A stretch of 53,687 bases of DNA from a virus. Its lineage: Duplodnaviria > Caudoviricetes. A program made the translations under genes and the position numbers. The stretch spans positions 1-53,687 of the IMG/VR virus record IMGVR_UViG_3300036827_000021. One strand, given 5' to 3'. Under the pieces are notes generated by a model. The model worked only from the letters and a program-made list of their open reading frames with translations, did not search any database and was not told the DNA's origin. This document shows positions 61-50,276 of the stretch, piece by piece (the stretch's first letter is position 1; every line of letters starts with the position of its first letter).

Positions 61-368
61 GGGGCAGCAAGGCAGCTGAGGGTGCGACCCGTACAGCACC
101 TAACGGGTACCACTACACCAAGGTGGATAGTAAGTGGAAGCTTACACACCACATCACGATGGAGAAGATCCTGGGTAGGCCTATCGATCTGTCTGTCGAG
201 CGCGTAGTGTTCAAGGAGGGCTACAGTTCTAAGGACTACGCCGACCCTGATGCCGTCGAAGTTCGAGTCAAGGGTGTCGTATCGAACACGAAGCAGATCG
301 CCAGGTTGATCGCTCGTAGGGATGAGATCCAAGCGCAGATTGATTTCCTCGAGGCTGAGAAACCTTAG
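57..368 (+). CDS. Degenerate HNH-like protein with C-terminal coiled coil
   Basis: NGY...THHITMEKILGRPI...ERVVFKEG resembles phage HNH_3 proteins, but the catalytic HH and N positions are not conserved. Confidence 0.55.
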   Translation: MRGSKAAEGATRTAPNGYHYTKVDSKWKLTHHITMEKILGRPIDLSVERVVFKEGYSSKDYADPDAVEVRVKGVVSNTKQIARLIARRDEIQAQIDFLEAEKP

Positions 369-375
369 AAACACG

Positions 376-473
376 TGTTAGACCTTGTCTACTTGAGTCT
401 AATAGCTTTTGTCATAGAGGCCTTAGTGGTTATATAGGCCTTGATGGACCTCGTGTTAGACTTGCAGAGAGAC
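376..473 (+). repeat. 98-bp three-box element, copy A (inverted partner at 36702-36799)
   Basis: TGTTAGACCTTGTC-nnn-TTGAGTCTAATAGnTTTT ... TATATA ... GTTAGACTTGCAGAGAGAC, with the same spacing as the reverse complement of 36702-36799. Confidence 0.9.
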
Positions 474-517
474 AACGGTTTCCGTGTCACACAGACCACA
501 CGCAGAGAGGGAAATGC

Positions 518-1015
518 ATGAAACAGATCGTAGCACTAGACCCAGGCGGAACAACGGGAGTTGCTGTTCTGACCTTCGATGCAAGCACCAAGTTGTGGCA
601 TCGTAAGCAGCTCGGACCACAAGAACACCACTACGACTTGTACCAAGAACTGTGTCAGCACCTGAACTGCCGCGGACAGGAAACCCCCCTGACTGTGGTC
701 TGTGAAGGATTCCAATACCGCAACGACTACCGTCCAGGGCTTGTACTTGTGTCGCGTGAGTACATCGGTGTGGCGAAGTTCTTCTGCCAGGAGTTCGAAG
801 TCTCCTACGTCGAACAGAGTGCAGGCCAAGGTAAGGCAGGGAAGAGAACGTTCGTTCGTCCTGAGCACATCAAGAAGCTTGGCATGTGGTTACCTGGCAA
901 GCCACATGCAATGGATGCAACAGCCCACTTGCTCTACTACGTCATCCACGGAAAGCACAACGACTCTGACCTACTCCAGTACAGGATGGAACTACTCAAC
1001 AAGGGTTGGAAGTAG
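518..1015 (+). CDS. RuvC-like Holliday junction resolvase
   Basis: IVALDPGGTTGVA N-terminus, VVCEGF and HAMDA acidic motifs. Confidence 0.8.
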   Translation: MKQIVALDPGGTTGVAVLTFDASTKLWHRKQLGPQEHHYDLYQELCQHLNCRGQETPLTVVCEGFQYRNDYRPGLVLVSREYIGVAKFFCQEFEVSYVEQSAGQGKAGKRTFVRPEHIKKLGMWLPGKPHAMDATAHLLYYVIHGKHNDSDLLQYRMELLNKGWK

Positions 1016-25207: not shown

Positions 25208-25228
25208 CCCACGGGAGCTAGAAAAGAT

Positions 25229-25300
25229 CTTAAAAAAACTATATTATTGTTTTATAAATAAATAAATAATAAATAAATAAAAATAAATTTACTACTAACT
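25229..25300. repeat. Extremely AT-rich tract with (AAAT)n repeats
   Basis: TTAAAAAAACTATATTATTGTTTTATAAATAAATAAATAATAAATAAATAAAAATAAATTT in an otherwise GC-balanced genome. Confidence 0.85.
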
Positions 25301-25489
25301 GAAGGAGAAAACAAGTCTGGCTAAATTACCGGTAATACCTCACTCCTACCATCAGGGTAGTTGATAACTACATAGCGTGCGAGTAGCGGCCAACCCCTTC
25401 TCTAACATCAGGGTTGCGTTCGACTCTACGAGGCGAGCGCTTCCCTGACCCACTCCATAAGAGGGTGGGCGAAACAGAAGGGGCCTATC

Positions 25490-26829: not shown

Positions 26830-26903
26830 GAGGACTACTCAGAGTTTTCCGCTAAGGATAACAGTAACGGAAACGGATAGATGTGCAGAATTTCTAGGCT
26901 TAT

Positions 26904-29612: not shown

Positions 29613-29614
29613 CA

Positions 29615-35959: not shown

Positions 35960-36312
35960 CGGTTCCCGCCGACCACCCGATGGTCGACAAGTATGTGCGC
36001 CCTTCCGACGTGCTGATCGTAGGTGCTCGGATCACCGACGATGTGGTGAGGACGCTCCGTACCATCGTCGAGCCGCACCTAGAAGCCGCGATCCGCGCTG
36101 ACGAGCGACGGCTCGCTCTCGCCGTCATGTCTCCCGACGCTGTGCCCGGCCCCGTCCGGGACGCGATCGAGGCCCAAGTACACGCCGAGTACGACGAACG
36201 AATCGACGCGGCAATCGAGTGGGGCCGTGCACACGCGGAGGAGATCAGCGTCTTGCCCCTCTTCCGAGCGCTCGGCGTCATGCCTCCCGCTCGCGGTGAA
36301 GGAGGACAGTAA
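35956..36312 (+). CDS. Hypothetical protein
   Basis: GTGA overlap, GC-rich. Confidence 0.55.
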   Translation: MTVPADHPMVDKYVRPSDVLIVGARITDDVVRTLRTIVEPHLEAAIRADERRLALAVMSPDAVPGPVRDAIEAQVHAEYDERIDAAIEWGRAHAEEISVLPLFRALGVMPPARGEGGQ

Positions 36313-36701
36313 TGGGATTTGGTGTTCAGACTAAAGCGTTCTACCCAGAAGTCTGGGACCCTGCTATCGGAGCGTGGGTCAAAGCCAAACGCATCAACAT
36401 GACTGGCAACATCATCGTGTGTCAGAGCATGCATGCAGCGGCTAAGGAGGCCGAGCGCGTAGCGAGGCAGATGGACTATCCCAAGTGGCGCGTGGTCAAC
36501 AGAGAGGGCTACGAGATCACTGTACCCGACCCTAGTACCAACGCAGGCAACATTGCACACGCCAAGCTACGTACGGAGCATCGGAAGCCTGGCAGGAAGC
36601 GTAGTCAGTGGTCCATGCTCAAGGAAGCAACACAGCAGCGGTATCTACGAGCTGGGATCACACCTGAACAGTACGATGCAGGAAAGCGTATCCTCAAGTA
36701 G
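36312..36701 (+). CDS. Hypothetical basic protein
   Basis: SD GGAGG; C-terminal WSMLKEATQQRYLRAGITPEQYDAG. Confidence 0.6.
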   Translation: MGFGVQTKAFYPEVWDPAIGAWVKAKRINMTGNIIVCQSMHAAAKEAERVARQMDYPKWRVVNREGYEITVPDPSTNAGNIAHAKLRTEHRKPGRKRSQWSMLKEATQQRYLRAGITPEQYDAGKRILK

Positions 36702-36799
36702 GTCTCTCTGCAAGTCTAACTCACTCGTACCCTCGTGGTATATATGGCTGTAGAGGTGATGGTAAAAACCTATTAGACTCAAAAGGACAAGGTCTAACA
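36702..36799 (-). repeat. 98-bp three-box element, copy B (inverted relative to 376-473)
   Basis: The reverse complement matches copy A at element positions 1-14, 18-30, 32-35, 56-61 and 80-98, with no gaps. Confidence 0.9.
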
Positions 36800-36834
36800 G
36801 CTAGTCTCAATCAAACAGACCTTCAAGTAAACCG

Positions 36835-36864
36835 TTGATATGTCAAGCGGGGTCAGCGTATAAT
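36835..36864 (+). promoter_or_regulatory. Sigma-A-like promoter
   Basis: TTGATA-TGTCAAGC-GGGGTC-AGCG-TATAAT. Confidence 0.7.
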
Positions 36865-36908
36865 TATTACATAAGGCATTTAGTCTAGGCACACAAGGGG
36901 GTGCTTAC

Positions 36909-37088
36909 ATGGCTACGTTTGTAGACGACAACAACAACAAGGTAAAGGCTGTCACTGCAGAGCAACATGCACTCGACAACCCTGGTCACATAGTGACAGT
37001 GCAAGCAAGACGCACGAGGTCGAAGTTCTTCATGCTCATCACTGCTTGTCACAGTTGTGCGTGGTGGAACGAAGAAGGCTACAAGTGA
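36909..37088 (+). CDS. Small hypothetical protein (59 aa, CxxC; not in the ORF track)
   Basis: SD AAGGGGGTG; MATFVDDNNN...ACHSCAWWNEEGYK*. Confidence 0.5.
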   Translation: MATFVDDNNNKVKAVTAEQHALDNPGHIVTVQARRTRSKFFMLITACHSCAWWNEEGYK

Positions 37089-37378
37089 CGGCTCCTCACG
37101 TACACGCTGACAGCGAAGCGCTGAGGCGACAGATCGAAGAGGACGAACTAGACGACAAGCTCGAACTAGCCCTCGGTGGCATCATCAAGATGACGGTGAT
37201 CGAGTATGCTAAGACTCGGAGTCGAAAGACAGGCATGCTCATTGCACCTCAAAACGTGTACTACTACATTCGATCAGGGAAGATCGATCAAGAGGTCTGC
37301 ATCTGTGGACGTAAGGTTATCGACGTGAAGTCTGCAGACGACTTCTTCAATGCCCTAGACAAGAAGGGTAAAACGTGA
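37085..37378 (+). CDS. HTH (Xis/MerR-like) DNA-binding protein
   Basis: MTVIEYAK.......IAPQNVYYYIRSGKI.....CGRKVID. Confidence 0.65.
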   Translation: MTAPHVHADSEALRRQIEEDELDDKLELALGGIIKMTVIEYAKTRSRKTGMLIAPQNVYYYIRSGKIDQEVCICGRKVIDVKSADDFFNALDKKGKT

Positions 37379-37701
37379 GTACCTACCAATCGACACTACC
37401 CCGTGTCTTTCCATGGGGGCTTGCACTAAAGCCAGTAGCAGTTGCCTTCTTGGTGAAGACGCTACTCGACCCGCGTCTACGTGCTGACGTGGAACAGGGA
37501 AGCTCGTTCGCAGTAACAGTTGACAACTGGAACGGAACATGGAACCTCTGGCTATCAGAAGTCAGCTACAACTTCCTGCTCGAGGGGAACTACTTTGTCG
37601 AAGCCGACCGACTCGCCTACCCACAACCCCGAAGCGAGGACGTACAACCCGAGGTACAGGAGACGGAAGAGGTATCAAGGCGCGACTTGGGCACCAGCTG
37701 A
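37375..37701 (+). CDS. Hypothetical protein
   Basis: GTGA overlap with an upstream SD. Confidence 0.5.
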   Translation: MSTYQSTLPRVFPWGLALKPVAVAFLVKTLLDPRLRADVEQGSSFAVTVDNWNGTWNLWLSEVSYNFLLEGNYFVEADRLAYPQPRSEDVQPEVQETEEVSRRDLGTS

Positions 37702-37893
37702 CACAAGTGCTGCACTAGGCGATGGTGTCTGGTGCAAGGCGTGCAAGATACGACATGGCTACAAGAACGCCATGGACGTGAACTACTTCTACAACACAGT
37801 GTCAAAGTTGTGGGAGATCCACTGGTCTTGTAAGAAGACAGGTAACGTTCTTGACATCACTGACAAGAACACATTCAGTCCTAAGGAGGACAA

Positions 37894-38448
37894 GTGACAG
37901 ACCACAGCCAACACAACGAGCAGCTGACTGGACACGAAGTGACCTTCAACGAGCGTGAGAAGGAAGCGCTGCTCGAAGTACACCCTGAGCTGGCAGAGCA
38001 CCTTCAGGTCAATTCCGGACCTGAGCGTGAGGCAGCCTTGGAGCGAGCCAAGGAAATCTGGGACATTGGCGTTGAAGACCTTCGTGCAAAGCTTGGTGAA
38101 GGTATCATGTACGAACCCTTCACAGACATCGCTACGTACATCACTCGCTTCGCACAAGAACGCATGGCTTTAGCCACCATCCAGGCCTTGCTGACTGGTG
38201 GTGGCAGTAACAGTGCATCAGAACGTGAGGTCATCCGTGTCCAGCAGGAGATCATCATGACACAACTCCAGACAGCCCTGGTAGCCGGCTATCGCTACGG
38301 ACAAGCTGGTGGCGACCTCGGTGAGATCAAGGCAATGGAGATCGACCTTGCCAAGGATTGTGGCAACGAGCGTTGCCCTATTCACCACCCACAGGATGGG
38401 CATGATGTCAAGACCATCAACCCCGACAAGACAGGGATGTACCTCTAA
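37894..38448 (+). CDS. Hypothetical protein
   Basis: SD AAGGAGG; C-terminal CGNERCPIH. Confidence 0.65.
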   Translation: MTDHSQHNEQLTGHEVTFNEREKEALLEVHPELAEHLQVNSGPEREAALERAKEIWDIGVEDLRAKLGEGIMYEPFTDIATYITRFAQERMALATIQALLTGGGSNSASEREVIRVQQEIIMTQLQTALVAGYRYGQAGGDLGEIKAMEIDLAKDCGNERCPIHHPQDGHDVKTINPDKTGMYL

Positions 38449-38687
38449 TGCCCAGTCAGGCATCGTACGCCAACGCCATCAATGAAACCAAGGCCAAGAA
38501 TGCAGCACAGAAACCCAAGAGGCCTGCACCCAACCGCATCCCTCTGACTAAGGTGGACAACCACTACATCGGCGGGAAGTGCCTAGGGTGTGGCGGTTCA
38601 TGTGAGGTCTGGTTCAACTACCAGCTATGCAGGATCTGTGTCAACATTCGACCCAACGCAGTCACAGGTCCCGGCTACACCTCCTAA
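38448..38687 (+). CDS. Small zinc-finger protein
   Basis: CLGC...LCRIC. Confidence 0.55.
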   Translation: MPSQASYANAINETKAKNAAQKPKRPAPNRIPLTKVDNHYIGGKCLGCGGSCEVWFNYQLCRICVNIRPNAVTGPGYTS

Positions 38688-38739
38688 CCAGCGTGTGGTC
38701 TTTGTTCAATAGCGCAGGCGTTTCCTGAAAGGAAGCTAC

Positions 38740-40344
38740 ATGACCTTCAACCTATATGACTTCCAGAAGGAAGACGTCGAGAAGCTGGCTGAGCAACGTG
38801 GTGCCATGATTGGTACTGAGATGGGTGCGGGCAAAACACATGAAGGTATTGCCCTCGATGAGCTCTGGAATCCCAAAGCGGAAAAGCCAACCCTAGTCGT
38901 AGCTCCGTTGCGTACACACTCTTCATGGCAGGAGAAGTATGGCAGACAATCACCTTCCACCGATGTCGTTCTTATCAATCGTAAGAACCGAGGAGCCTTT
39001 GTCGACGCCATTGGGCGACCGACTAGAACGCGCCGTGGTGACGTATTCGTTATGCATTGGGACGCACTTCGTTTACTCAAGGGGCTATCTCAGGTCCCGC
39101 TGGGTGTGCTTATTGCCGACGAAGCGCATCGTGGTTCGAACCGAAAGGCTCAGGCGACCCAACACCTTCGGCGCCTTCGTGCAGAGCACCGCTTGGCGAT
39201 GTCAGGAACGCTTACAGGCGATAAGCCAGAAGGCATCCAGCAGATCCTCAAATTCATCCGACCAGGAGACCTCGAGTTCAGCTCGTATGACAGGTTCATA
39301 AAGAAGTACACCAAGCGGGCCAAGATTGAAGATCCTTCAGGCGATACGTCTGGGTATACCAGGTTCCTTTCCTACGAGGAAATGCTCGACACAGACGCTG
39401 ACTGGTATGAGCCTGATATGGCGGAGGACTTCCTCAAGCACCTCCGTGAGCTACATGAACGCATTGCACCGTACTATGTACGACACCTCAAGCATGAGCA
39501 GTGCTGTGAACATCATCCTGAAGGAGTCATGCCATGGCTTCCGGAGAAGACGTACGACATGATGTGGGTGGACCTCAACCCGACCCAGAAGCGCATGTAC
39601 GATCAGATGCGCAAGGACATGGTGGCTTGGGTTGGGGAGCACGAAGCATCACCACTGGTTGCTTCAGTCGTCGTCGCACAGATGACACGTCTAAGTCAGA
39701 TTGCGCTTGCTACGCCACGCTTAGATACCACCTTCGTCAGAAAGCGCGACATGGAAGAGGGTGGGTGGCTTATCAACCCTGACACGAACGACGAGTACTG
39801 GGAGAAGGAGGTAGTCAACCTTGAAGAGCCATCCTCCAAAATCGATGCAGTCACTGATCTTATCCGTGATAACGGGTCGAAGCAGTTTGTGGTCTACTCG
39901 TCGAGCAAGAAGGCTTGCTATCTGGCTCAATCGCGATGGGAGAACCTTGGGATATCCACCAGAGTTATTAGTGGTGACTCGTCAGAATGGGACAATCAGC
40001 ATTTTACTACATCGTTCGCAAATGGGGACTTCCAAGTTTGCATCGGAGTTATCGAGGCAATTGCCGAGGGGGTGGATGGCCTTCAATATGCTACAGACAC
40101 AGGGATCTTCCTGGATCGTAGTTGGAAGACTGTCAAGAACATCCAAGCTGAGGATCGCCTATGGCGTGATGGTCAAGCCAATGCAGTACAGATCATTGAT
40201 GTCATGGCTCGAGGTACACTGGATTTCGGGCGCAAGACCAAGCTTGGGACAAAGTGGTCTGCGATCAAGAGGATGCTAGGCGATCCTAGTGCCTTGCAAC
40301 AAGAAGCTGCACAACACTACTTTGACGAGGAAGAGGTTGCATGA
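38740..40344 (+). CDS. SNF2-like superfamily 2 helicase
   Basis: LYDFQ, EMGAGKT, IADEAH, MSGT, EGVDGLQ and QAEDRLWRDGQ. Confidence 0.9.
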   Translation: MTFNLYDFQKEDVEKLAEQRGAMIGTEMGAGKTHEGIALDELWNPKAEKPTLVVAPLRTHSSWQEKYGRQSPSTDVVLINRKNRGAFVDAIGRPTRTRRGDVFVMHWDALRLLKGLSQVPLGVLIADEAHRGSNRKAQATQHLRRLRAEHRLAMSGTLTGDKPEGIQQILKFIRPGDLEFSSYDRFIKKYTKRAKIEDPSGDTSGYTRFLSYEEMLDTDADWYEPDMAEDFLKHLRELHERIAPYYVRHLKHEQCCEHHPEGVMPWLPEKTYDMMWVDLNPTQKRMYDQMRKDMVAWVGEHEASPLVASVVVAQMTRLSQIALATPRLDTTFVRKRDMEEGGWLINPDTNDEYWEKEVVNLEEPSSKIDAVTDLIRDNGSKQFVVYSSSKKACYLAQSRWENLGISTRVISGDSSEWDNQHFTTSFANGDFQVCIGVIEAIAEGVDGLQYATDTGIFLDRSWKTVKNIQAEDRLWRDGQANAVQIIDVMARGTLDFGRKTKLGTKWSAIKRMLGDPSALQQEAAQHYFDEEEVA

Positions 40345-40541
40345 TGAACCACAGCTACCACACTGAGGGCAGGACAAGCCTCGAAGCGTTCCACAAGGAC
40401 ATCAAGAGGCGCTTCGAACGCTACGGGCACGAGACAAGACTTCACTTCCATTCCTTCGGGCTGGAATGTACAGGCCACGAACACAAGGACTCAGAGAACG
40501 GTCTATTCATTGAAAAGAAGGTGGAGGAAAATGGACAGTGA
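40341..40541 (+). CDS. Small His-rich hypothetical protein
   Basis: ATGA overlap. Confidence 0.5.
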   Translation: MMNHSYHTEGRTSLEAFHKDIKRRFERYGHETRLHFHSFGLECTGHEHKDSENGLFIEKKVEENGQ

Positions 40542-40737
40542 GATACGTGTAATCAAGACGTACTACGCTGTAGTACGTTTCACTGCACAGGACGTAGAAA
40601 CTCTGAGGCGTATTACAACCGCATGGGCGGAGCAACAACGTTTACTGCCTGAGCCGAATAGTGAAGAAGGAGTGCTGGTTACCAAGCTTCGGGCGCTTAC
40701 AGTTCCTGCAAGGTGTGACAGTATGGATGATGACTGA
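40531..40737 (+). CDS. Hypothetical protein
   Basis: SD GGAGG before MDSEIRV. Confidence 0.55.
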   Translation: MDSEIRVIKTYYAVVRFTAQDVETLRRITTAWAEQQRLLPEPNSEEGVLVTKLRALTVPARCDSMDDD

Positions 40738-41291
40738 TGGCCGTATACGTACTGCTCTCCTTCGAGGACCAGGAAGAGGCTAAGGAATTCGTCAAGGAGC
40801 AGATCGACCCTAAGGGAACAACGTTCATTGGTGACATCTACATGGACGGTGCCGATCTTGGAGGCCTACGCCAGACATATCCAGAAGTGGTAGGGGTGTA
40901 CAGGAAGCCGTCCATGTTCTGTGATCAGGACCCCACAACCCACAGGCCGAACAAGTTCTGGTACAGGAGAGGTCAGAAGTACGGCTGGATGGTTTGTACC
41001 GTCTGTGGTAAGCCGTCGCCACGCAACCAGGCTGTGACAGGTCAGCATTGGGAGATGACGCTGGGTCGAAACCTACTACCACCAGAGCTCTGCACTGATC
41101 CAGAGTTCAACTACAGACTGCGGGGCGCCTCACCTGTGCAGTGGGATGACCTTTTGCCGGAGGGGACAACTCGCTATGTACCTGAGAAAGATGGACTGTA
41201 TGCATCCATCTTCGTGAATTGGGTACCTCCGTCTCCAGGGCAGAAAGAAACCTCTGACCCCGTTGACTCACCCGAGTCTTCCAATATATAA
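40737..41291 (+). CDS. Hypothetical protein with zinc-binding motif
   Basis: FCD....H...YGWMVCTVCGKP. Confidence 0.65.
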   Translation: MAVYVLLSFEDQEEAKEFVKEQIDPKGTTFIGDIYMDGADLGGLRQTYPEVVGVYRKPSMFCDQDPTTHRPNKFWYRRGQKYGWMVCTVCGKPSPRNQAVTGQHWEMTLGRNLLPPELCTDPEFNYRLRGASPVQWDDLLPEGTTRYVPEKDGLYASIFVNWVPPSPGQKETSDPVDSPESSNI

Positions 41292-41292
41292 T
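41263..41292 (+). promoter_or_regulatory. Sigma-A-like promoter for the recombination/replication operon
   Basis: TTGACT-N18-TATAAT. Confidence 0.75.
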
Positions 41293-41329
41293 TACTGTAT
41301 AGCTCCTCAACAAGCAAAGGCACACTTAC

Positions 41330-42628
41330 GTGACGCTTACTGTACAGGAATTGATCGACCTCAGGTTGTGTCATGAGATTCACACCTCCGAACGAAAGTC
41401 CTTCAGGGGCTGCCGTCGTCGCTGGGATTGGATCTTTCACCAACACTACTACCCACATATCACAGCCAAACCCCTGGAATTTGGTGTTGCGTACCACGCA
41501 GCCATGGAGGTCTACTACGACCCTGACACGTGGACGTGGGACCGAGAGGTAGTAGGCAATCTAGCCATCCAGAAGTTCAAGGACGTCTGCAACGAACAGA
41601 AGGCCAAGTTCCTCGACCTCACAGGCACTATGTTCCTTGACGACGAAGCTGACATCGACTACAAGGAACGTGTCGAGCTTGGCGAAGGCATGATGCAGTA
41701 TTACTTCAAGGAAGTTGCCCCAATCAAGGACAAAGGCTTCAAGCCTGTCAAGGTAGAAGTCAAGTTCATGGTCGCGATCCAGAACCCCCTTACTGGGGAA
41801 GAAGCCATCTGGTGCAAGTGCGACGAGTGCTGGGACAAGTGGAAGGCACATCCAGGCTATGTCGAATGGCGTACTAACTGTGAAGACCTGTACAGGCAAG
41901 ACAACCTCGGTGCTTCGCTCTCTGAAGCAACCCATGAAGCTCTCTACCGACAAGAGCGTTGGCTAGGACTGCCTGTAGTCTATGCCGGGCGCTGTGACAT
42001 GTTGGCCATTGATGAGCTTGGCAACTACTGGATCTATGACTGGAAGACTGCAGCACAGATCCGTGAGGACAAGGACTTCCTGTACCTCGACGACCAGGTA
42101 GGTTCGTACGTCTGGGCACTTCGCAAGATCGGCATCAATGTCATCGGGTTTGTCTACGTCGAGATGAAAAAGGGCTTCCCGATGCCTCCCAAGCAGAACA
42201 AGAACAGGCGCCTTGGCCGTATGTTCAGTGTGGCTCAGAACCAAGACACTGACTATGAACACTACGTGCGCACTGTCATGTTCGAAGATGCAGATGCATT
42301 CGAACAGGGCCTATACGATGACTACCTGAACTACCTTCGTGAAGAGGGTACTGTGTTCCACCGTCGCTCCGAAGTGACGAAGACTCAGGACGAGTTCGAA
42401 GAGCTCGAGATCAATATCGGTCTCGAAGCGCTCGAGATGATCAACCCCAACCTTGCGATGTACCCCAACCCTGGTAGGTTTAGTTGCAAGACGTGTGCCT
42501 TCTTCGAACCCTGTGTGGAGAAGAACACACGTGGTGACTACAAGTTCCTTCTTGACACTATGTTTGATGTCAAGGAGCACTACTACGTCCGACAGGACGC
42601 TTCGACTGACACGAAGGGTGGGGAGTAA
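41330..42628 (+). CDS. PD-(D/E)XK Cas4/RecB-like exonuclease
   Basis: HTSERKSFRGCRRRW, FGVAYH, GRCDML...IYDWKT, QVGSY and C-terminal CKTCAFFEPC. Confidence 0.85.
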   Translation: MTLTVQELIDLRLCHEIHTSERKSFRGCRRRWDWIFHQHYYPHITAKPLEFGVAYHAAMEVYYDPDTWTWDREVVGNLAIQKFKDVCNEQKAKFLDLTGTMFLDDEADIDYKERVELGEGMMQYYFKEVAPIKDKGFKPVKVEVKFMVAIQNPLTGEEAIWCKCDECWDKWKAHPGYVEWRTNCEDLYRQDNLGASLSEATHEALYRQERWLGLPVVYAGRCDMLAIDELGNYWIYDWKTAAQIREDKDFLYLDDQVGSYVWALRKIGINVIGFVYVEMKKGFPMPPKQNKNRRLGRMFSVAQNQDTDYEHYVRTVMFEDADAFEQGLYDDYLNYLREEGTVFHRRSEVTKTQDEFEELEINIGLEALEMINPNLAMYPNPGRFSCKTCAFFEPCVEKNTRGDYKFLLDTMFDVKEHYYVRQDASTDTKGGE

Positions 42629-42967
42629 GTGCCTTCCCAACATTGGTATGAAACGGAACAAGAGTTTGTCGAGCGAAGACTCCTTGCTAAGCGTACTATT
42701 CAACAGGGCAGCACTCTTGTCACTACTCCCTGTTGGTTATGGGAAGGGTACCTGAACCACAAAGGGTATGGATTTATTTACCTCGACTACAAACGTTATT
42801 TCGTACATAGAGTTTCGTTCGAACTCTATAAAGGTCCAATTCCAGATGGTCTAGAACCTGACCATTTGTGTATGGTGCATAGGTGTTTCTATCCTGAACA
42901 CCTAGAAGCGGTAACGCATGCTGTGAATGTACAACGTGCGTTTGATACAGCTCGAGGAGGTGAATAA
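42629..42967 (+). CDS. HNH homing endonuclease
   Basis: CWLWEG..NHKGYG.......HRVSFELYKGPIPDGLEPDHLC..HRCFYPEHLEAVTHAVN. Confidence 0.9.
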   Translation: MPSQHWYETEQEFVERRLLAKRTIQQGSTLVTTPCWLWEGYLNHKGYGFIYLDYKRYFVHRVSFELYKGPIPDGLEPDHLCMVHRCFYPEHLEAVTHAVNVQRAFDTARGGE

Positions 42968-43820
42968 CATTCCAGGAACACTGACAGCCACCAGTTTGGG
43001 TGGACTCGAGGTCGTGAAGGTACAAGACGAACGAGGGTTCATCAACTGGTTGATCTATGGGGAATCCGGGATCGGTAAGACGACGCTTGCAGGATCATGT
43101 GACATGGTCGAACTACTGCAACCCGTCATCTTCATCGACATCGAAGGAGGTACCCAGTCGCTCGAAGACGTGTACCCCAATGTGCAGAAGGTGCGCGTTA
43201 CGTCGTGGCCAGAGATGCAACAGGTGTACCACGACCTCTACATGGGTGGTCATCCATGGAGAACCATCGTGCTTGACTCGCTTACGGAGATCCAGCGCTT
43301 CAACATGGAACATGTCATGCAGAAGGCGCAAGAGAAGTCGGACGACCGTAAGGGATTCGATCCCGATGTACCTGCACAGCGTGACTGGGGCGTGAGCTCT
43401 AGTCAGTTGAAGAGGATGATTCGTGGGTTCCGTGACCTACCGATGAATACCATCTTCACTGCACTAGCCCAGGAACGTCAGGACAAGAAGACAGGAAGGG
43501 TATCAATTCTACCTGACCTGCCTGGTAAGTTGGCACAGCAAGTGCCCGGTCTACTCGACATCGTGTCGTACTACTATCTCAAGGACCTCGGCGACGAGGG
43601 CGTTGATGGGTATGACGGAGAACAGCGAATTCTCCTGAACGACAAGACCGAGAAGATCATGGCCAAGTCGCGTGTGGGTAAGTTACCACAGACAGTGATT
43701 GCGCCAACGATGCCACAGCTGTTCAAGCTCATGTACGAAGGTCGGCAAGTTCCGACACCGCGAGACCTCGCCAGCGATGAGTCTGACGAGACACCTGTGA
43801 CCAGTGAAATGGTCCTGTAA
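42960..43820 (+). CDS. AAA_24 (Sak4-like) ATPase; start uncertain
   Basis: LIYGESGIGKTT, FIDIEGG and TIVLDSLTE; upstream of the DUF669 SSB gene. Confidence 0.85.
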   Translation: MNNIPGTLTATSLGGLEVVKVQDERGFINWLIYGESGIGKTTLAGSCDMVELLQPVIFIDIEGGTQSLEDVYPNVQKVRVTSWPEMQQVYHDLYMGGHPWRTIVLDSLTEIQRFNMEHVMQKAQEKSDDRKGFDPDVPAQRDWGVSSSQLKRMIRGFRDLPMNTIFTALAQERQDKKTGRVSILPDLPGKLAQQVPGLLDIVSYYYLKDLGDEGVDGYDGEQRILLNDKTEKIMAKSRVGKLPQTVIAPTMPQLFKLMYEGRQVPTPRDLASDESDETPVTSEMVL

Positions 43821-43831
43821 GGGGAGTACCC

Positions 43832-44359
43832 ATGTCAGAGTACGACGACAACATCTACATCGACTTCACCGACGATGAGGCCTCCAGTGAGGGCAGGTCG
43901 TATCAGCCACTTCCGAGTGGTGAGTACGACGTGTTCGTCACCGAGATCGAACGTCGTGAGGTCAGCAAGGGCGACAATGAGGGCAAGCCCTACTGGAACG
44001 TGATGCTCACAGTCAATGGCGGTGAGTACGACAACCGCAAGCTGTTCACGTCCATCATGCTCTTCAGCATTCCTGGCAAGAACGTGCTCTTCAAGCTGGC
44101 ACAGCTGCTCAAGGCAACCGGGTTCGCCGAGGACGTTCGTGGCATCAAGCAGGTGCCACCGGCCGAGGAGCTCGAGGGTCGCGAGGCAGTCGCCATTGTC
44201 GTGCGCAAGCGTGACAAGTACAAGGAAGAGAACGAGGGCCAGCCGGGCGAGCGCCTCTACAAGAACGAGGTGAACGGCTTCAAGGCTGCAGGCACTGCGG
44301 GTACTGCCACTCAGGGTGGACCTCGCGTGGCGTCTGGGGCCGGCTCGATTCTGCCGTAA
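43832..44359 (+). CDS. DUF669-like single-stranded DNA-binding protein
   Basis: YQPLPSGEYDV.VTEIE...GKPYWNV......GEYDNRKLF...NEVNGF. Confidence 0.8.
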   Translation: MSEYDDNIYIDFTDDEASSEGRSYQPLPSGEYDVFVTEIERREVSKGDNEGKPYWNVMLTVNGGEYDNRKLFTSIMLFSIPGKNVLFKLAQLLKATGFAEDVRGIKQVPPAEELEGREAVAIVVRKRDKYKEENEGQPGERLYKNEVNGFKAAGTAGTATQGGPRVASGAGSILP

Positions 44360-44557
44360 CCCAATCTCATGAACGTGGTTGCTATAGGGATGAGTACAAA
44401 TGCCGAGCTTAGTTTCGGCAAGCTCGGAGCAGAGCACAGAGTCGCTTCCCCTTGAAGTCACTCGACGCTCGGGCGAAAGTCCTGTACCTACTGCCTGCGA
44501 GGATAAGCTAGTCAAAATCCCGAGTCAGGCCAACCACCTTGAAACAGAAGGGCTATC

Positions 44558-46837
44558 GTGCCTAAGATTGACCTTCTCGACCCTAAAGTAGAGAACGCAC
44601 GAAAGATGTTCTTTCGTACGATCTATGGAAAGGAGACCGAGGGGTACGTCTGCCTATCATTCGTGACACCAGGACCTAGGCCAAGTAAGGGCGGATTCAA
44701 GGAAGAGTTCTTCCACTGGCCTACTGATGAAGCACTCATGCTCCGTGCCATAACTAGTAGGGTTATGACACACACAGTCTACTTCTGTCCGCACCTGTTC
44801 GATGAGAAGAAGCGACAGAAGGAAGCTGCGACTATAACCCCTAGTGCATGGGCCGACCTTGACTTCTTCAAGCCTGAGGACCTACTGGTCCAACCCACTG
44901 TAACGATCGAGAGTTCGCCACGTAGGTATCAGGCCCTGTGGTGCTTTTCGGAAAAGGTAGACCCGCAAGATGCACAGGATCTCAGTAAGCGCATTGCGTA
45001 CAAACACGCAGAAGAGGGCGCTGATAGAAGTGGCTGGGATCTAACGCAGCTCCTTCGAGTCCCATATACACTCAACTTCAAGTACGACAATGGGACTGGT
45101 CCTCCTGTTGTTACCATCGTGGAAGCAAACCCTAACAGACGCTATGAACTGACAGACTTCGACGAGTACCCACCCACCCCTGGTTACGTCAATATCGACA
45201 TACCTATGCCAGACATTCCCTATCTGGAAGGCGAAGCGCAACAGCTACTACAGAGCAATCGGCTTCGACAGAGCCCTACGATCTGGATCCTCTTCAACGA
45301 GGTACCGACATCTGAAAGCTGGTCAGAGCTACTGTGGAAGTTCATGCTCATGCTCTTCGAGGCAGGGTTTGATCGCGAACAGGTATTCAAGATTGCTCGC
45401 GATGCTGGCTGTAACAAGTACGCCAGAGACAACAGACCACAGGAGCAGTTGTGGAAAGAGGTATGCCGAGCTGAATACCGCTACGACCTGAATACCTCAC
45501 TACTTGTACCCAACCCTGAAGAGATGACGCGTCTCCTTTCCGAGGAGGAAATTGCCACAGTAGCTAATGCAGAGGACACTTTCGTCGAGAGGTACATCAA
45601 ATGGGCGAGTTCACTTGGAGATGCAGCGCCACAATACCATCAGGCTGGTGCATTCGTTGCGCTCAGTTCCTTGCTGGCGGGGAGTGTGCGCTTGCCGACT
45701 TCATACGGAACGGTGATCCCGAACATATGGTTTATGATCCTAGCAGACACAACGCTGACAAGAAAAACGACAGCGATGGACATAGCAATGGATCTAGTAA
45801 CCGAAGTCGACGACCAGGTAGTGATGGCAACGGACGGCTCGATCGAAGGGCTCTTGACTTCCCTGGCAACACGTCCGAACAGGCCCTCGGTTTTCCTCCG
45901 AGATGAATTCAGCGGTCTTATCAGCCAGATGGTCAAGAAGGACTACATGGCTGGTATGGCTGAACTCTTGACAAAGTTGTACGACGGCAAATTGCAGCGT
46001 AGGATCCTGCGAAAGGAAACAGTTGAAGTACGAGACCCAAGGCTCATCGTCTTCGGTGGCGGTATCAAGGACCGCGTATGTGGAGCTCTCGACATTGAAA
46101 TGGTCTCGTCAGGCTTCATGCCGCGTTTCGTATTCATTACTGCGGAATCCGACCTACAACGTGTCAGGCCCGTGGGGCCGCCGACCATTGCGTCGTTTGG
46201 ACAGCGGGAAGCCATCCAGGAGGAGCTAACTGACATTCATGCAATGCACAATAGGATCCAGAGCATGCAGATCAAGAACACTGCCGTGACACTTGAGCAA
46301 CCCCTTACCACGGATGCAGTCATGTCAGATGAAGCCTGGATCCGGTTCAATGAGCTTGAAGGCGTCCTACTCGAGAATGGGTTGAAGGCAGAGATGCCTT
46401 CGATCATGACACCTGTAGCTGACAGGCTTGCTAAGTCGATCCTCAAGGCTGCACTACTCATCTGTGCATCAAGGCAGAAGCCAGACGATAATGACACGAT
46501 CACTATCGAGCTGCTCGATATCCTTCGTGCGATCAAGTATGGCGAGCAGTGGTATGCGCATGCACTTGATGTAATGGAGAACGTAGGTAAGGGCACGGAA
46601 GAGAAGCGCATAGATACAATTGTGCAGAACATTCAACGGCATCCAGGTGGTCTGCCTCGTTCTATGCTCATGCAGAGCTATCACCTTACGGCTCGAGATG
46701 CAAACCACCTATTCGAGACACTCGAGCAGCGTGGCTTGATCAGACGTCAGCGTCAGGGTAAGACTGAAGTGATCTATCCAACCATCACCGTCATAAAGGA
46801 GACAGAGCGTAGTGAACTCAAACCCAGATCGGGGTAG
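44558..46837 (+). CDS. Primase-helicase: RepB'-type AEP primase plus DUF3987-like helicase domain
   Basis: AWADLD, TIESSPRRYQALW, GWDLTQLLRVPYTLNFKY; C-terminal TRKTTAM, DGSIEGL, RDEFSG and SGFMPRF. Confidence 0.85.
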   Translation: MPKIDLLDPKVENARKMFFRTIYGKETEGYVCLSFVTPGPRPSKGGFKEEFFHWPTDEALMLRAITSRVMTHTVYFCPHLFDEKKRQKEAATITPSAWADLDFFKPEDLLVQPTVTIESSPRRYQALWCFSEKVDPQDAQDLSKRIAYKHAEEGADRSGWDLTQLLRVPYTLNFKYDNGTGPPVVTIVEANPNRRYELTDFDEYPPTPGYVNIDIPMPDIPYLEGEAQQLLQSNRLRQSPTIWILFNEVPTSESWSELLWKFMLMLFEAGFDREQVFKIARDAGCNKYARDNRPQEQLWKEVCRAEYRYDLNTSLLVPNPEEMTRLLSEEEIATVANAEDTFVERYIKWASSLGDAAPQYHQAGAFVALSSLLAGSVRLPTSYGTVIPNIWFMILADTTLTRKTTAMDIAMDLVTEVDDQVVMATDGSIEGLLTSLATRPNRPSVFLRDEFSGLISQMVKKDYMAGMAELLTKLYDGKLQRRILRKETVEVRDPRLIVFGGGIKDRVCGALDIEMVSSGFMPRFVFITAESDLQRVRPVGPPTIASFGQREAIQEELTDIHAMHNRIQSMQIKNTAVTLEQPLTTDAVMSDEAWIRFNELEGVLLENGLKAEMPSIMTPVADRLAKSILKAALLICASRQKPDDNDTITIELLDILRAIKYGEQWYAHALDVMENVGKGTEEKRIDTIVQNIQRHPGGLPRSMLMQSYHLTARDANHLFETLEQRGLIRRQRQGKTEVIYPTITVIKETERSELKPRSG

Positions 46838-47585
46838 TGTCATAGCAGTTGTGAGTGGAGGTCTTGACAGCGTCACAATGCTGTTTGACCTTGTTGCTCA
46901 AGGTTATGACGTAAAGCATGTGGTGTCGTTCGATTACGGTCAACGGCACGTGCGAGAGCTCGAGTACGCCAAGAGTGCTGCATGGATGTGCTTCGGTGAC
47001 GATCATCACTCTGTCATCAAGATGTACGACACGGGTCTGATGAAGTTCCTGAACGCAAGTGGTTCTTCGCTTGTGTCGCGTGCTACTGACGTTCCTGAAG
47101 GTCACTATGCACAGGACAACATGAAGGCAACTGTAGTACCCAACCGCAACATGATGATGCTGAGCATTGCATGTAGCATTGCAGTGTCACTTGATGCCAA
47201 CTACATCGCAACGGCAGTGCATGCAGGTGACCACTTCATCTACCCAGACTGCCGACCCGAGTTCCTTGGCAAGCTGGAACAGGCAATGGTTCTGGGCAAT
47301 AAAGGCTTCGGTCACTTTCAAGGTATTCTGGCACCTTACATTCGTGAGAGCAAAGAGTACATTGCAGGACGTGCTCTTGACCTTGGAGTACCTCTCGATC
47401 AGACCTGGAGTTGCTACAAGGGTGAAGGTGCACACTGCGGACGTTGTGGTACATGCGTCGAGCGTCTAGAAGCAATCGACATGGCATGCAAGGTGCGTGG
47501 GTACGACGTGGCAACAAGGGACCACACTGTGTATGCAGACAGGGAATACTGGAAGCAAGCTGTCAAGGAGGCAAGCAATGCCTAA
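46812..47585 (+). CDS. queC: 7-cyano-7-deazaguanine synthase
   Basis: VSGGLDS, FDYGQRH, VPNRN, YPDCRPEF, TWSCY and CGRCGTCVER. Confidence 0.95.
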   Translation: MNSNPDRGSVIAVVSGGLDSVTMLFDLVAQGYDVKHVVSFDYGQRHVRELEYAKSAAWMCFGDDHHSVIKMYDTGLMKFLNASGSSLVSRATDVPEGHYAQDNMKATVVPNRNMMMLSIACSIAVSLDANYIATAVHAGDHFIYPDCRPEFLGKLEQAMVLGNKGFGHFQGILAPYIRESKEYIAGRALDLGVPLDQTWSCYKGEGAHCGRCGTCVERLEAIDMACKVRGYDVATRDHTVYADREYWKQAVKEASNA

Positions 47586-47748
47586 GAAATTAGTCGAACT
47601 GATCTACAAGCATGCGCACGAGTGCAGTGCCAACGAGGAGGTGTTCAGCGTCAGACCCATAGTGAATGGAACCATTTACTTCAAGCAGGTACCTGTCTGC
47701 ATGGAGACCAACATCGAACTCGAACTTGTCGACAAGAGGTACAGCTAA
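47578..47748 (+). CDS. Small hypothetical protein
   Basis: SD AAGGAGG; MPKKLVELIYKHAHEC..., coupled to queD. Confidence 0.5.
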   Translation: MPKKLVELIYKHAHECSANEEVFSVRPIVNGTIYFKQVPVCMETNIELELVDKRYS

Positions 47749-48107
47749 TGTACCAAATCACTAAGGAATTCAAGTTCAGTGCAGCACACCACCTGACCAA
47801 GGTGTACGAAGGTCACAAGTGTGCGCGCGTACATGGGCACAACTACACAGTCATCGTCATGCTCGAAGCTGAGCAGCTGAACGAGCAAGGTTTCGTAGAG
47901 GACTACGGAGATCTGCGCGACATCAAGGAATGGATCGACAGTACGTTTGATCATCGTGATCTGAACGACATTCTGTTGGTCGAGCCAACTGCAGAGAACC
48001 TTGCTCGACACATCTACGACGCGTTCAAGTTTGCGCACCCCCTGATGACCGTAGTCAAGGTGAAGGAGACTGATGGCACCTCTGCAAGCTACTACGAGAA
48101 CCTCTAA
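47748..48107 (+). CDS. queD: 6-carboxy-5,6,7,8-tetrahydropterin synthase
   Basis: FSAAHHL, CARVHGHNY, FDHRDLN, PTAENLA and VKET. Confidence 0.95.
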   Translation: MYQITKEFKFSAAHHLTKVYEGHKCARVHGHNYTVIVMLEAEQLNEQGFVEDYGDLRDIKEWIDSTFDHRDLNDILLVEPTAENLARHIYDAFKFAHPLMTVVKVKETDGTSASYYENL

Positions 48108-48399
48108 CTTCCACGCCAACTACAAAGGCAAGCTCGACGATGCGACTGGGCATGTAACGGGTCCAAACACCTACAGGATGTTCCTGACAGTCGTCGAGCA
48201 AGTGTATGACCCTGATACCAACACAACCAGACTAGGCTTCGTGCCTACCACACCAGAAGACATGGGGATGTCAAATGACCAGTCAGACACCGATCACGCT
48301 CGACCCCTCCGACCCGTTCGAGCGAGTGGTCATCGAGGCCGTCGCAATGAATCGCGCAAAGGCGGCGGACTACGCAGGAGTGGTAACGGGAGACGGTAA
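48073..48399 (+). CDS. Hypothetical protein overlapping both neighbours
   Basis: Strong SD GAAGGAG. The first ~66 aa look globular; the tail overlaps 48275-48652 in another frame. Confidence 0.45.
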   Translation: MAPLQATTRTSNFHANYKGKLDDATGHVTGPNTYRMFLTVVEQVYDPDTNTTRLGFVPTTPEDMGMSNDQSDTDHARPLRPVRASGHRGRRNESRKGGGLRRSGNGRR

Positions 48400-48652
48400 G
48401 TGGCAGAACTTCTATGACACTGCCTACCAGATGAGTCAGACACCAGGTCACTCGGTCGAACAGCTGATCGCTACCAAGCAGGCACGTCTGCGAGTGCTAC
48501 TGCCTCGACTGTTCAAGAAGGTTGGCAAGCCGAAGAACGAGTCGGTGCGCGACACACTACTTGACCGTTGTGTGTATTCGACAATCGCAGTGGCATTGTT
48601 CGACGAAGGCTCGTACGATGAAGGTTGGAGCGACGGCCTTGCGACTCTCTGA
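48275..48652 (+). CDS. Nmad1/DUF1599-like all-alpha NTP pyrophosphatase-fold protein
   Basis: KAADYAG....WQNF...KQARL...KNESVRDTLLDRCVYS. Confidence 0.65.
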   Translation: MTSQTPITLDPSDPFERVVIEAVAMNRAKAADYAGVVTGDGKWQNFYDTAYQMSQTPGHSVEQLIATKQARLRVLLPRLFKKVGKPKNESVRDTLLDRCVYSTIAVALFDEGSYDEGWSDGLATL

Positions 48653-49334
48653 AATCTACCTGTCCGTTCAAGGAGAGGGTCCACGTGTCGGCAAGCCAAC
48701 TGTTTTTGTACGCTTCGGTGGTTGCAATCTTCGTTGTCCTGGTTGGCCTTGCGACACTCCTCACGCTATTGACGCTGAAACATATCGTCATGAGTGGCAG
48801 AAGAAGACCCCGGAAGAGGTAGTCGAGAACATCCACCAGGCGCAAGGTGCTCATGAGTCCACCAATGTCTGCTTCACAGGTGGCGAACCCTTCCTGCAGC
48901 CAGATGCAGAGATGGATGAGCTGATCAACATCCTGCTACAGGATGAACGTGTCTTCATGACTGAGGCGTTCACCAACGGTACAATCATGTGGACAGCGTT
49001 AGCCACAGACACCGTTGCAATGGTGATGGACTGGAAGCTGCCTGGTAGTGGTGAAGTGTCCAACAATGCCAACCGAACTGAGAACTTCCTTGGCATGACT
49101 TGGGGTGACTCAGTCAAGTTCACCATCAAGGACAAGACCGACTACGAGACAGCTAGGCGAATCTACGACATTTGGAAGGATAAGAACGAGAAGGTCGAGT
49201 GGTTCTTCGGTGCAGTGTGGGACACTGTCGACTACGACGAGCTCATCAACTGGGTGCTCGAAGACGGACTGCCTTGGCGATTCAACATGCAGGTCCACAA
49301 TCATGTGTGGGACCGAACACAAAGGGGCATCTAG
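48618..49334 (+). CDS. queE: 7-carboxy-7-deazaguanine synthase (radical SAM)
   Basis: SEIYLSVQGEG...VFVRFGGCNLRCPGWPCDT, FTGGEPFLQ, TNGT and QVHNHVW. Confidence 0.92.
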   Translation: MKVGATALRLSEIYLSVQGEGPRVGKPTVFVRFGGCNLRCPGWPCDTPHAIDAETYRHEWQKKTPEEVVENIHQAQGAHESTNVCFTGGEPFLQPDAEMDELINILLQDERVFMTEAFTNGTIMWTALATDTVAMVMDWKLPGSGEVSNNANRTENFLGMTWGDSVKFTIKDKTDYETARRIYDIWKDKNEKVEWFFGAVWDTVDYDELINWVLEDGLPWRFNMQVHNHVWDRTQRGI

Positions 49335-49888
49335 TGACAGCTAGTCAAGAGTACTATGCGCAGGAGCTTCTTTCCTCTCTGGAAGCTTGGCATCGCACCT
49401 CAAAAGACCACACGCAGGGGACTGCTGCACGATTTGTGAAAGCCTTGGAGGAGATGACAACTCGTGGTGACTTCACCTTCACTACATTTACGGCTTCTGA
49501 CCAGAACATGGTCGTTATGCATCCGATTCCGTTCTACTCACTATGTGCACATCACGTTCTACCGTTCCACGGTGTGGCATCCGTCGGATACGTACCGCGA
49601 AGCAAGATCGCAGGGCTCAGCAAGCTGGCTCGCACCGTTCAGGAGCTCGCTAAGGGCTTCCACGTCCAAGAAGCACTTACCACTGAAATCTCGTCCTACC
49701 TCGACCATGAACTTGAGCCTCTCGGTGTTGCAGTTAGACTCAGGGCCTCGCATATGTGCATGGAGCTACGAGGAGCGCGAGTCTCCGGTGCGCTTACTAC
49801 TACAACCACAGTGACCGGGGTCTTTGCAGACCATACCCGAACAGCAAAGGCCGAATTCCTCGAAGCGATCAGGAGCACGAATGATTGA
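49334..49888 (+). CDS. folE: GTP cyclohydrolase I
   Basis: FYSLCAHHVLPFHG, GLSKLAR, QEALT, HMCMELRG and KAEFL. Confidence 0.92.
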   Translation: MTASQEYYAQELLSSLEAWHRTSKDHTQGTAARFVKALEEMTTRGDFTFTTFTASDQNMVVMHPIPFYSLCAHHVLPFHGVASVGYVPRSKIAGLSKLARTVQELAKGFHVQEALTTEISSYLDHELEPLGVAVRLRASHMCMELRGARVSGALTTTTTVTGVFADHTRTAKAEFLEAIRSTND

Positions 49889-50276
49889 CATACAAGGATC
49901 AGAACCTACACTGGGGCAGCTTGCCAAGCAATCTCTACTCGACTCAGAGAAGTGGTTCGACGACCTCGAGAACGACTGCATCTACAGCATCCCATATACA
50001 GTGCTGGCACTGTGCGGCGAGGCTGGTGAGCTTGCCAACATCATCAAGAAGATCGAACGCGGATCGCTGAGCTGGAAGGACTCTGGTACAAAGTACGATG
50101 CAGTAATGGAGAGCATCGACATCTTCGTGTACCTACTCAACTTCTGGGCACTTGCCAACGTCGACCCGTACAAGCTGCATCAGACAAAGCGTGCGATCAA
50201 CGACAAGCGCTTCATGGCTGAGCGTGCAGTGCGTGAAGCGAGGCGAGAGGCGGCAAATGACAACCCCTTCGAGTGA
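49881..50276 (+). CDS. MazG-like nucleotide pyrophosphohydrolase
   Basis: LALCGEAGELANIIKKIERG...ESIDIFVYL...KRAINDKRF. Confidence 0.85.
   Translation: MIDIQGSEPTLGQLAKQSLLDSEKWFDDLENDCIYSIPYTVLALCGEAGELANIIKKIERGSLSWKDSGTKYDAVMESIDIFVYLLNFWALANVDPYKLHQTKRAINDKRFMAERAVREARREAANDNPFE

Follow-up and report, generated by a model that had tools for sequence, protein, structure and literature searches.

We analyzed a 53,687-nucleotide stretch of DNA from a tailed phage (Duplodnaviria; Caudoviricetes; positions 1 to 53,687 of IMG/VR record IMGVR_UViG_3300036827_000021), hereafter called the window, in which two intergenic sites carry inverted copies of a three-box element, copy A and copy B (Table 1). 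Both copies are members of a lineage-specific family of directional intergenic cis-elements. The window contig is a circular permutation: its polymerase open reading frame (ORF) crosses the contig end, and there is no terminal repeat. In the ORF map, the genes form a plus-strand block, which runs from ∼27.3 kb through the contig end to position 1015, and a minus-strand block, which runs from 26793 down to 1086. Copy A lies between a 103-amino-acid HNH-like ORF and a RuvC-like gene, and copy B between the last early ORF and a strong sigma-70-type promoter; the ORF map thus bears out the initial annotation, which had called both copies intergenic. On the circle, the copies are 17.3 or 36.4 kb apart. 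They enclose the arc 36800..53687..375 (∼17.3 kb) and the dyad of boxes 1 and 2 points inward, again as first described.

The initial annotation had aligned positions 376–473 with the reverse complement of 36702–36799, reporting two 98-bp sequences that match without gaps, share identical boxes, and have diverged in their linkers. This description proved correct in every detail. We counted 63 identities in 98 positions, with exact blocks TGTTAGACCTTGTC (box 1, 14 nt), TTGAGTCTAATAG (box 2, 13 nt), TTTT (4 nt), TATATA (6 nt), and GTTAGACTTGCAGAGAGAC (box 3, 19 nt). The linkers agreed at 7 of 42 positions, which is the random level or lower, and the flanks beyond the 98 bp at 8 of 40 positions (a 20-nt extension on each side). 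When the match and mismatch positions were shuffled 200,000 times, the summed length of the three longest runs (46) was never reached, and a run of at least 19 was reached 484 times. Furthermore, the box 3 19-mer occurs in the window at these two places alone when up to three mismatches are allowed (0 expected, from 100 shuffles), and six of the nine TTAGAC occurrences on both strands of the window fall within the two elements.

Table 1. Positions of the two element copies, their parts, and adjoining features in the window
Feature	Positions	Strand	Remarks
Copy A (position P1), full profile extent	361..480	+	7-copy nhmmer profile matches 363–478, E 1.4e-20; the 98 bp described earlier are 376–473
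H1-like degenerate hexamer TTAGAA	365..370	+	Anchored alignment; 12–13 nt before box 1; relatives carry TTAGAC
Box 1: H2 GTTAGAC (377–383) and start of inverted H3, GTCT (386–389)	376..389	+	Exact in A and B
Box 2: inverted heptamer H4 GTCTAAT (397–403)	393..405	+	Exact in A and B
Central TATATA in the free spacer	431..436	+	Exact in both window copies
Box 3: direct heptamers H5 GTTAGAC (455–461) and H6 GAGAGAC (467–473), 12 nt apart	455..473	+	Exact in A and B
ACCACAC motif	495..501	+	22 nt after box 3 of copy A
Copy B (position P2), full extent	36695..36814	−	nhmmer 36699–36812, E 6.4e-22
Copy B, box 3	36702..36720	−	
Copy B, TATATA	36739..36744	−	
Copy B, box 2	36770..36782	−	
Copy B, box 1	36786..36799	−	
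Copy B, H1-like TGAGAC	36804..36809	−	
HNH-like ORF, 103 amino acids	57..368	+	Directly upstream of copy A; candidate heptamer reader
RuvC-like gene	518..1015	+	phrog_1981; ATG 44 nt after box 3 of copy A
Last early ORF	36312..36701	+	Stop codon abuts box 3 of copy B
Sigma-70-type promoter TTGATA-18-TATAAT into the replication module	36835..36864	+	11/12 consensus matches; 21 nt past the array side of copy B
Primase-helicase (RepB′-type primase domain and DUF3987)	44558..46837	+	Pfam and PHROG matches; inside the bracketed arc

A family of heptamer arrays at gene-module borders

The exact box patterns gave 0 matches in IMG/VR. A tolerant pattern of three TTAGAC cores at the observed spacing, run over IMG/VR, returned one true relative, G001 (a complete record of 62,673 bp, GC content 54.2%); a second match (L007) was rejected as a chance one, lying within coding sequence read as GTP cyclohydrolase. 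A copy profile found exactly two copies in the window and five in G001. A second pattern, GTCTAA-N52-GTTAGACT-N3-AG-N2-AGAC, which matches all five G001 copies, led to G002 (a complete record of 52,138 bp) and G003 (a 31,795-bp fragment), and gave 0 matches in 185,579 species genomes. In total, the family comprises 14 copies in four genomes, the window and three IMG/VR phage records. These genomes are collinear in gene order at 25–60% protein identity (a match in G001 was found for 25 of the 67 window ORFs, and one in the window for 27 of 75 ORFs from G002 and 19 of 52 from G003), they have the 7-deazaguanine gene set in common, and the borders of the replication module are comparable in all four.

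Other searches added no member. Both copy neighborhoods gave no blastn match in 50,697 phage records, and the cultured relatives found by tblastn with the primase, the polymerase, and the RuvC-like protein were all below 33% identity. Protein-anchored locus searches yielded short or distant contigs only (L001, L003–L005), from which the element is absent. The box 3 19-mer had a single match in metagenome contigs; this falls within the ORF of a presumed ABC-type ATPase and was therefore rejected as chance. Tetrasphaera phage TJE1, which has TGTTAGACC in a palindrome quoted in PMC9892861 (in excerpt), was likewise set aside: with 0 nhmmer matches and one heptamer, it is not a relative.

The repeat unit of the family is the heptamer GTTAGAC with an invariant AGAC core, present 5–7 times per element in elements of about 115–150 bp. 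At the element end stands box 3, which in 14 of 14 copies is a direct heptamer pair 12 nt apart, GTTAGAC-N5-(G/T)(A/T)(G/T)AGAC. It is preceded by an upstream cluster of 3–5 heptamers in varying orientations, and neighboring heptamers are set 9–12 nt start to start, about one helical turn. The distance from the last upstream heptamer to box 3, again start to start, is 58 nt in 11 of the 14 copies, 57 and 56 nt in two, and undefined in one; the spacer before box 3 is fixed in length (∼5.5 helical turns) and without conservation in sequence. GTCTAA, GTTAGACT, and AGAC are invariant in the seven aligned copies, among them the AGAC and GTC of box 1 and the GTCTAA of box 2 (7/7). TATA occupies the columns of the central TATATA in four of the seven, namely both window copies and two of the five from G001. 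A CCACA motif follows box 3 after 22–27 nt in 9 of 14 copies and is absent in copy B.

Two types of copy can be told apart by the last upstream heptamer. Nine copies are of type I: the two of the window, the five of G001, and those at P2 in G002 and G003. In these, the last upstream heptamers are inverted, and H3–H4 and box 3 make a stem of ∼17 pairs. In the four type II copies, found at two loci of the G002/G003 lineage, the heptamer in the same columns is direct, and there is no fold.

The copies sit at recurrent places. Position P1, between the HNH-like ORF after the polymerase gene and the RuvC-like gene, is occupied in all four genomes by a copy that is always co-oriented with its flanking genes. 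Position P2, the early/middle border 1–3 kb upstream of the SNF2 helicase gene, is likewise occupied in all four, antisense in the window, G002, and G003 and sense in G001. Position P3, between the tail tube and tail chaperone genes, holds a copy in three of the four (sense in G001, antisense in G002 and G003) and is empty in the window. Orientation relative to the flanking genes therefore flips between genomes at P2 and P3. G001 has two extra copies, one after the small terminase gene and one, c4, antisense in the early region; in G002, a looser cluster is found on the upstream side of the small terminase gene. Within ∼20 nt after c4 comes a 10-bp GC-rich hairpin (46290–46320 of G001), and if transcription can start from the element, this hairpin would mark the limit of a short antisense RNA. 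The genomes hold 2–5 copies each, separated by 10–36 kb and fitted tightly between genes: copies begin 2–15 nt past a stop codon and finish 11–47 nt before the next start.

Conserved spacing with free linkers had led the initial annotation to propose selection for a multi-site complex, and the relatives bear this out, as all three keep the heptamers and the spacer length, and not the spacer sequence. Intergenic DNA is rarely recognizable between phages at such protein identities. Given that the heptamers, the exact spacer length, and the genomic positions have been kept, the element must serve an important role in this uncultured soil phage lineage. The pairing at P1 and P2 also recurs, since the same two borders are occupied in 4/4 genomes and the pair is inverted with the array toward the replication module in 3/4. 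What did not hold is the pair as a special unit: the relatives have three to five copies, some of them in tail and packaging operons, and the border copies of G001 are direct. A larger dispersed family can thus come to notice through one striking pair.

Protein-bound arrays, hairpins, and other readings

Tentatively, we favor a reading of the element as a multi-site DNA array that is bound by a phage protein and acts as a boundary or regulatory complex. A phage-encoded, sequence-specific protein would bind the heptamer array cooperatively, and the bound protein would bend or wrap the spacer into a single nucleoprotein complex. Such complexes at gene-module borders would most likely act on cross-border transcription in the manner of a roadblock, insulator, or temporal switch. 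The invariance of the heptamer across deep divergence, its occurrence in either orientation in the same columns, and the retention of the sites by four stemless copies argue for sequence-specific reading of double-stranded DNA. Because the sites are kept without a fold, a DNA-site reading covers the type II copies, which a hairpin does not. Bending or wrapping is called for by the fixed spacer of ∼5.5 turns; control of transcription across borders is suggested by the occupied borders, together with a sigma-70-type promoter next to the P2 array in two of the four genomes (the window and G003). Since the family occupies several module borders, protein-bound boundary or regulatory sites are likelier than a special pair of origins.

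The best candidate for the reader role is a small HNH-like protein whose gene lies beside P1; it has presumably lost its catalytic histidines. Its orthologues (100–125 amino acids, 39–49% identity) lie directly upstream of the P1 copy in 4/4 genomes, and no other conserved gene adjoins a copy in every case. The window protein has no match in Pfam or PHROG. Its AlphaFold2 model has a predicted local distance difference test score (pLDDT) of 84, with a long C-terminal helix predicted, and is best matched by the HNH nicking endonuclease I-HmuI (Z 5.5, root-mean-square deviation 4.4, 66 residues aligned), followed in order by I-PpoI, Smad4 MH1, and NFIC; these Z scores are low, from 5.5 to 2.5. 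Smad MH1 reads GTCT/AGAC, the same core as the heptamers, possibly by coincidence. A bolder version, which we regard as a long shot, has a dead HNH (His-Me-finger) protein domesticated as the AGAC-heptamer reader and adds folded attC-like palindromes with the integron core-site consensus, so that the module borders of this lytic lineage would be both transcription boundaries and integrase-free module-swap points. Smad MH1 and NFI, His-Me-finger DNA binders like the candidate's other fold matches, would then have a parallel in a bacterial virus. The element offers a defined, testable cis-element with a candidate protein partner, which could help explain how module borders are organized in phages without known regulators.

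A number of observations weigh against a protein-bound array and its candidate reader. The best Z of 5.5 is below the 7–8 that the fold-search tool typically returns as its best for unrelated models, a Foldseek search of the model against the PDB returned nothing at E ≤ 0.001, and hhalign of the protein with the true HNH_3 protein of the window was weak (E 0.39). The catalytic His-His position, which reads V-(V/R)-F in all four orthologues, was placed with a motif that we assume applies here. Twelve of the 14 copies are without a sigma-70-like promoter scoring at least 10/12 within 200 bp, so a simple operator role is not general. The type I copies are long imperfect palindromes that fold far better than shuffles on both strands, with sense z scores from −3.1 to −8.8 in eight of them (copy A, −3.15; the five G001 copies, −3.10 to −8.76; the P2 copies of G002 and G003, −7.45 and −5.65). 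RNAalifold returned a 17-pair consensus stem for the seven-copy alignment, with two pairs changed on both sides. In this stem, 95.8% of the cells were paired versus 91.1% in shuffles, and the covariation was 0.241 versus 0.150, values reached by 2 of 500 shuffles. Its mismatches were 16 G–U versus 2 C–A among 119 cells (which are not independent), a bias that favors a strand-specific reading as RNA or single-stranded DNA. Palindromes with strong folds and some covariation indicate that nucleic-acid structure is also selected in most copies.

The fold scores and the G–U bias make an RNA hairpin the strongest rival, although we consider it unlikely overall. A long stem of H3–H4 with box 3 would close a variable inner hairpin and serve in transcript termination or attenuation, in RNase III-type processing, or in stabilizing the mRNA between cistrons, perhaps with a sequence-specific factor to read it. 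Type I spacers differ between copies yet are self-complementary within each, as such a hairpin would have it, and copies stand where intercistronic hairpins are usual, for instance after the tail tube gene. Since GTCTAAC...GTTAGAC reads alike on both strands, the hairpin would work in either orientation. However, the four type II copies keep their heptamers and cannot form the stem (z +0.04, +0.24, −0.05, and +0.99), and copy B, a type I copy, folds weakly (z −0.77, or −0.35 in another run). A plain hairpin has no need of a strict heptamer sequence, and the stem leaves out the H1–H2 sites and the ACCACA box. No canonical intrinsic terminator with a T run was called at either window copy; the TTTT after box 2 follows an AT-rich stem with a 13-nt loop. 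Against Rfam 15, nothing in the window reached a gathering score, and the surroundings of the two copies matched no family even at E ≤ 1. The element was also considered as a promoter (sigma-70, sigma-54, extracytoplasmic-function-like, or with TAGACA as a −35 box) and rejected by eye, the sigma-54-type TTGCA in box 3 being without a conserved GG. No sigma-70-type promoter scoring at least 10/12 was found inside any of the 14 copies; in the window, 1–1300 has no such promoter, and the single one by copy B, at 36835, is external to the element.

The initial annotation had preferred paired strand-specific origins or priming sites, with recombination or inversion sites as the alternative, and both are weakened. 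That the copies are replication sites, either RepB′-type priming signals or initiator arrays of a P4-like split origin with orientation set by fork direction, is quite unlikely. Copies do flank the replication module in 4/4 genomes, inverted in 3/4, but they also occur in tail and packaging operons, and the G001 border copies are direct. The RepB′-type assignment of the primase held up (PF16793, RepB_primase, E 5.6e-7, 30 bits versus a cut-off of 24.3; in this 759-amino-acid protein the catalytic-domain family alone was matched), and RepB′ of RSF1010 uses two inverted ssi sites; these, however, differ from the element in size, arrangement, and position (PMC8567376, in excerpt). As single-stranded DNA, the box 1/box 2 hairpin is weak, at −2.2 kcal/mol (z −0.12) and −4.0 kcal/mol (z −2.19). 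Plus and minus copies form two contiguous blocks on each circle, like replichores, which happens by chance about half the time, and the GC skew makes no turn at either window copy. The spacer is not AT-rich, and an AT-rich tract by the small terminase gene is a better candidate for unwinding. Structured recombination sites, whether attC-like folded DNA or cruciforms cut by RuvC-like or EndoVII-like resolvases in module exchange or inversion, are improbable. GTCTAAC/GTTAGAC fits the R box RYYYAAC/GTTRRRY, as do 16 of 16,384 heptamers, with the AAC:GTT end toward the loop as in attC and an H4–H5 distance of 65 nt within the attC range of 57–141 (PMC5027507, in excerpt), but both window copies read GTCTAAT, without AAC. 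When folded, most copies make an imperfect hairpin whose center varies, and they follow closely on ORFs; the internal loops at the position of the attC unpaired central spacer vary, from none (G001 c2) to 7 × 6 (copy A), and the second conserved box of the element is tandem, not inverted as we take the R/L box layout to require. Phage-borne attC recombined by IntI1 has been reported in virulent phages (PMC9892861, in excerpt); here, the copies are 10–36 kb apart without a cassette array, and the window copies are nowhere identical over more than 19 bp. Element orientation varies at orthologous borders and a RuvC-like gene adjoins P1 in 4/4 genomes, yet the collinear gene order of the four genomes means that no module inversion is seen. 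The earlier remark that no recombinase was recognized stands: no integrase, transposase, or other recombinase family was found among the 40 window ORFs scanned. A search of sequencing runs gave four from soil metagenomes and none from RNA. Their contigs over 35500–38000, one of which (9,641 nt, possibly the source) spans that whole interval, showed no joints and no differences at copy B, as far as contigs, which cannot show minor isomers, can tell. If true, an attC-like reading would bear on how mosaic exchange is targeted. Finally, a selfish palindromic repeat resembling a miniature inverted-repeat transposable element, spread within genomes and without a phage function, is highly improbable. 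The element is multi-copy, intergenic, found in either orientation, and has ∼19-nt inverted ends (H3–H4 and H5–H6), but the interiors are unrelated while ends and length are kept, the opposite of recent transposition, and the same borders are occupied in 4/4 genomes despite their protein divergence. No target-site duplication was read at either window copy on either arc; the scan of 40 ORFs found no transposase and the species genomes gave no match to the element pattern.

Neighboring genes and other features of the window

The RuvC-like gene matched, by tblastn, Gordonia phage proteins annotated as RuvC-like resolvases. At the other border, the last early ORF ends right at box 3 of copy B, as though it had been cut short at that point. 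It has no family match in Pfam or PHROG, and its C-terminus (...GITPEQYDAGKRILK) presumably resembles the start of endonuclease VII-type HNH proteins.

The plus-strand block begins with small early ORFs and continues with the replication and 7-deazaguanine module, which encodes an SNF2 helicase, a PD-(D/E)XK exonuclease, an HNH protein, a Sak4-like ATPase, DUF669, the RepB′-type primase fused to DUF3987, QueC, QueD, a radical-SAM protein, and the polymerase. The polymerase ORF (∼800 amino acids) has an N-terminus judged by eye to be UDG-like. Before it, at 46812–51374, lie the 7-deazaguanine genes QueC, PTPS/QueD-like, and radical-SAM QueE-like, with two unassigned ORFs; this gene set suggests modified DNA. 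The minus-strand block is structural and lytic, with the small and large terminase, portal, major head, tail tube, tape measure, and endolysin genes.

Eight sites of a promoter family TTGNNN-N17-19-TATAAT, unusual in its 17–19-nt spacer, were found in the window, the one at 36835–36864 among them; seven of the eight are on the plus strand from 27286 to 41263. A 48-nt direct repeat (92% identical, at 31675–31722 and 33571–33618) contains a member of this family, TTGCAA-18-TATAAT, and just 3′ of the promoter at 31686, ARAGORN called a putative tRNA-His with the unusual anticodon ATG at 31809–31881. Where the late and early blocks diverge, a 28-nt inverted repeat (89% complementary, 26902–26929 and 27003–27030) could be an operator. 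In the 70-bp gap where the RuvC-like and holin-like genes converge, a GC-rich inverted repeat (1022–1079) with perfect 15-bp arms around a 28-nt loop is probably a bidirectional terminator without a T run. The AT-rich tract mentioned above, an extreme run of short TTTA/TTAA-type repeats at 25225–25305 upstream of the small terminase gene, keeps its position in G001 (54860–54940) and could serve in origin unwinding, in packaging, or as an UP-like region.

Comparison with known systems

The two ssi sites of RSF1010, ssiA and ssiB, are 40 nt long and adjacent in one oriV on complementary strands, and are described as specific to IncQ-like plasmids; in each, a single-stranded 5′ tail precedes a stable hairpin at nt 7–27, and the GTG start follows at nt 31–33 (PMC8567376, in excerpt). 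The heptamer element resembles them in placing similar sequences on opposite strands of a replicon with a RepB′-type primase domain. It differs in its length of about 115–150 bp, in lying at least 17 kb apart, and in its 2–5 copies per genome, and no conserved GTG was seen after its long stem, which folds well in 8 of 14 copies.

The attC site is an imperfect hairpin of 57–141 nt formed from one strand, with an unpaired central spacer of 5–6 nt and extrahelical bases; its R box RYYYAAC, in which AAC is conserved, pairs with GTTRRRY (PMC5027507, Nivina et al. 2016, in excerpt). Cassette arrays have been delimited with a distance of 3 kb (PMC9892861, Qi et al. 2023, in excerpt). Searches of the literature (GTTAGAC with phage) and of Rfam found no description of the heptamer element, though the attC lists of PMC9892861 may contain similar sites in other phages. 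The likeness to attC lies in the imperfect hairpin with a variable center, its length, its place just after ORFs, and the fitting heptamer pair, which reads GTCTAAC...GTTAGAC in the seven type I copies of the relatives. Unlike attC, the copies are dispersed, carry extra tandem heptamers, include four that cannot fold, and have no integrase found with them.

Alpha of satellite phage P4 binds the ori and crr repeats. In the GenBank annotation of P4, 8-bp 'ori type 1 repeats' lie at 4291–4590 and ∼9310–9413, around the alpha gene (4636–6969). These two mixed-orientation repeat clusters flank an operon that ends with the primase-helicase gene, much as P1 and P2 do in 4/4 genomes, a likeness of arrangement only. 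The primase-helicases themselves have no sequence similarity (best BLASTP E 1.1), and the heptamer elements, of a fixed two-part build around an invariant spacer, also occur in structural operons.

In parS of phage P1 and cosB of lambda, boxes on either side of a bend are held at strict spacing by one protein in a single folded complex. Both are single-copy, with ParB and gpNu1 as partners and a site for IHF. Neither a ParB-like protein nor an IHF site was recognized in the window, and the heptamer element is present in 2–5 copies per genome.

Dispersed intergenic repeats specific to phages are already known, such as stoperators, start-associated sequences (SAS) and their extended form (ESAS), and the RNase III sites of T7. 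Mycobacteriophage stoperators are single 13-bp protein-bound sites of temperate phages, with an orientation tied to transcription, and the ESAS of cluster K are paired 17-bp inverted repeats just upstream of starts. The heptamer elements are like them in being lineage-specific short repeats dispersed in intergenic phage DNA. They are unlike stoperators in being composite arrays, in a phage with no integrase among the ORFs scanned. What is new here is this composite heptamer-array architecture with its invariant spacer.

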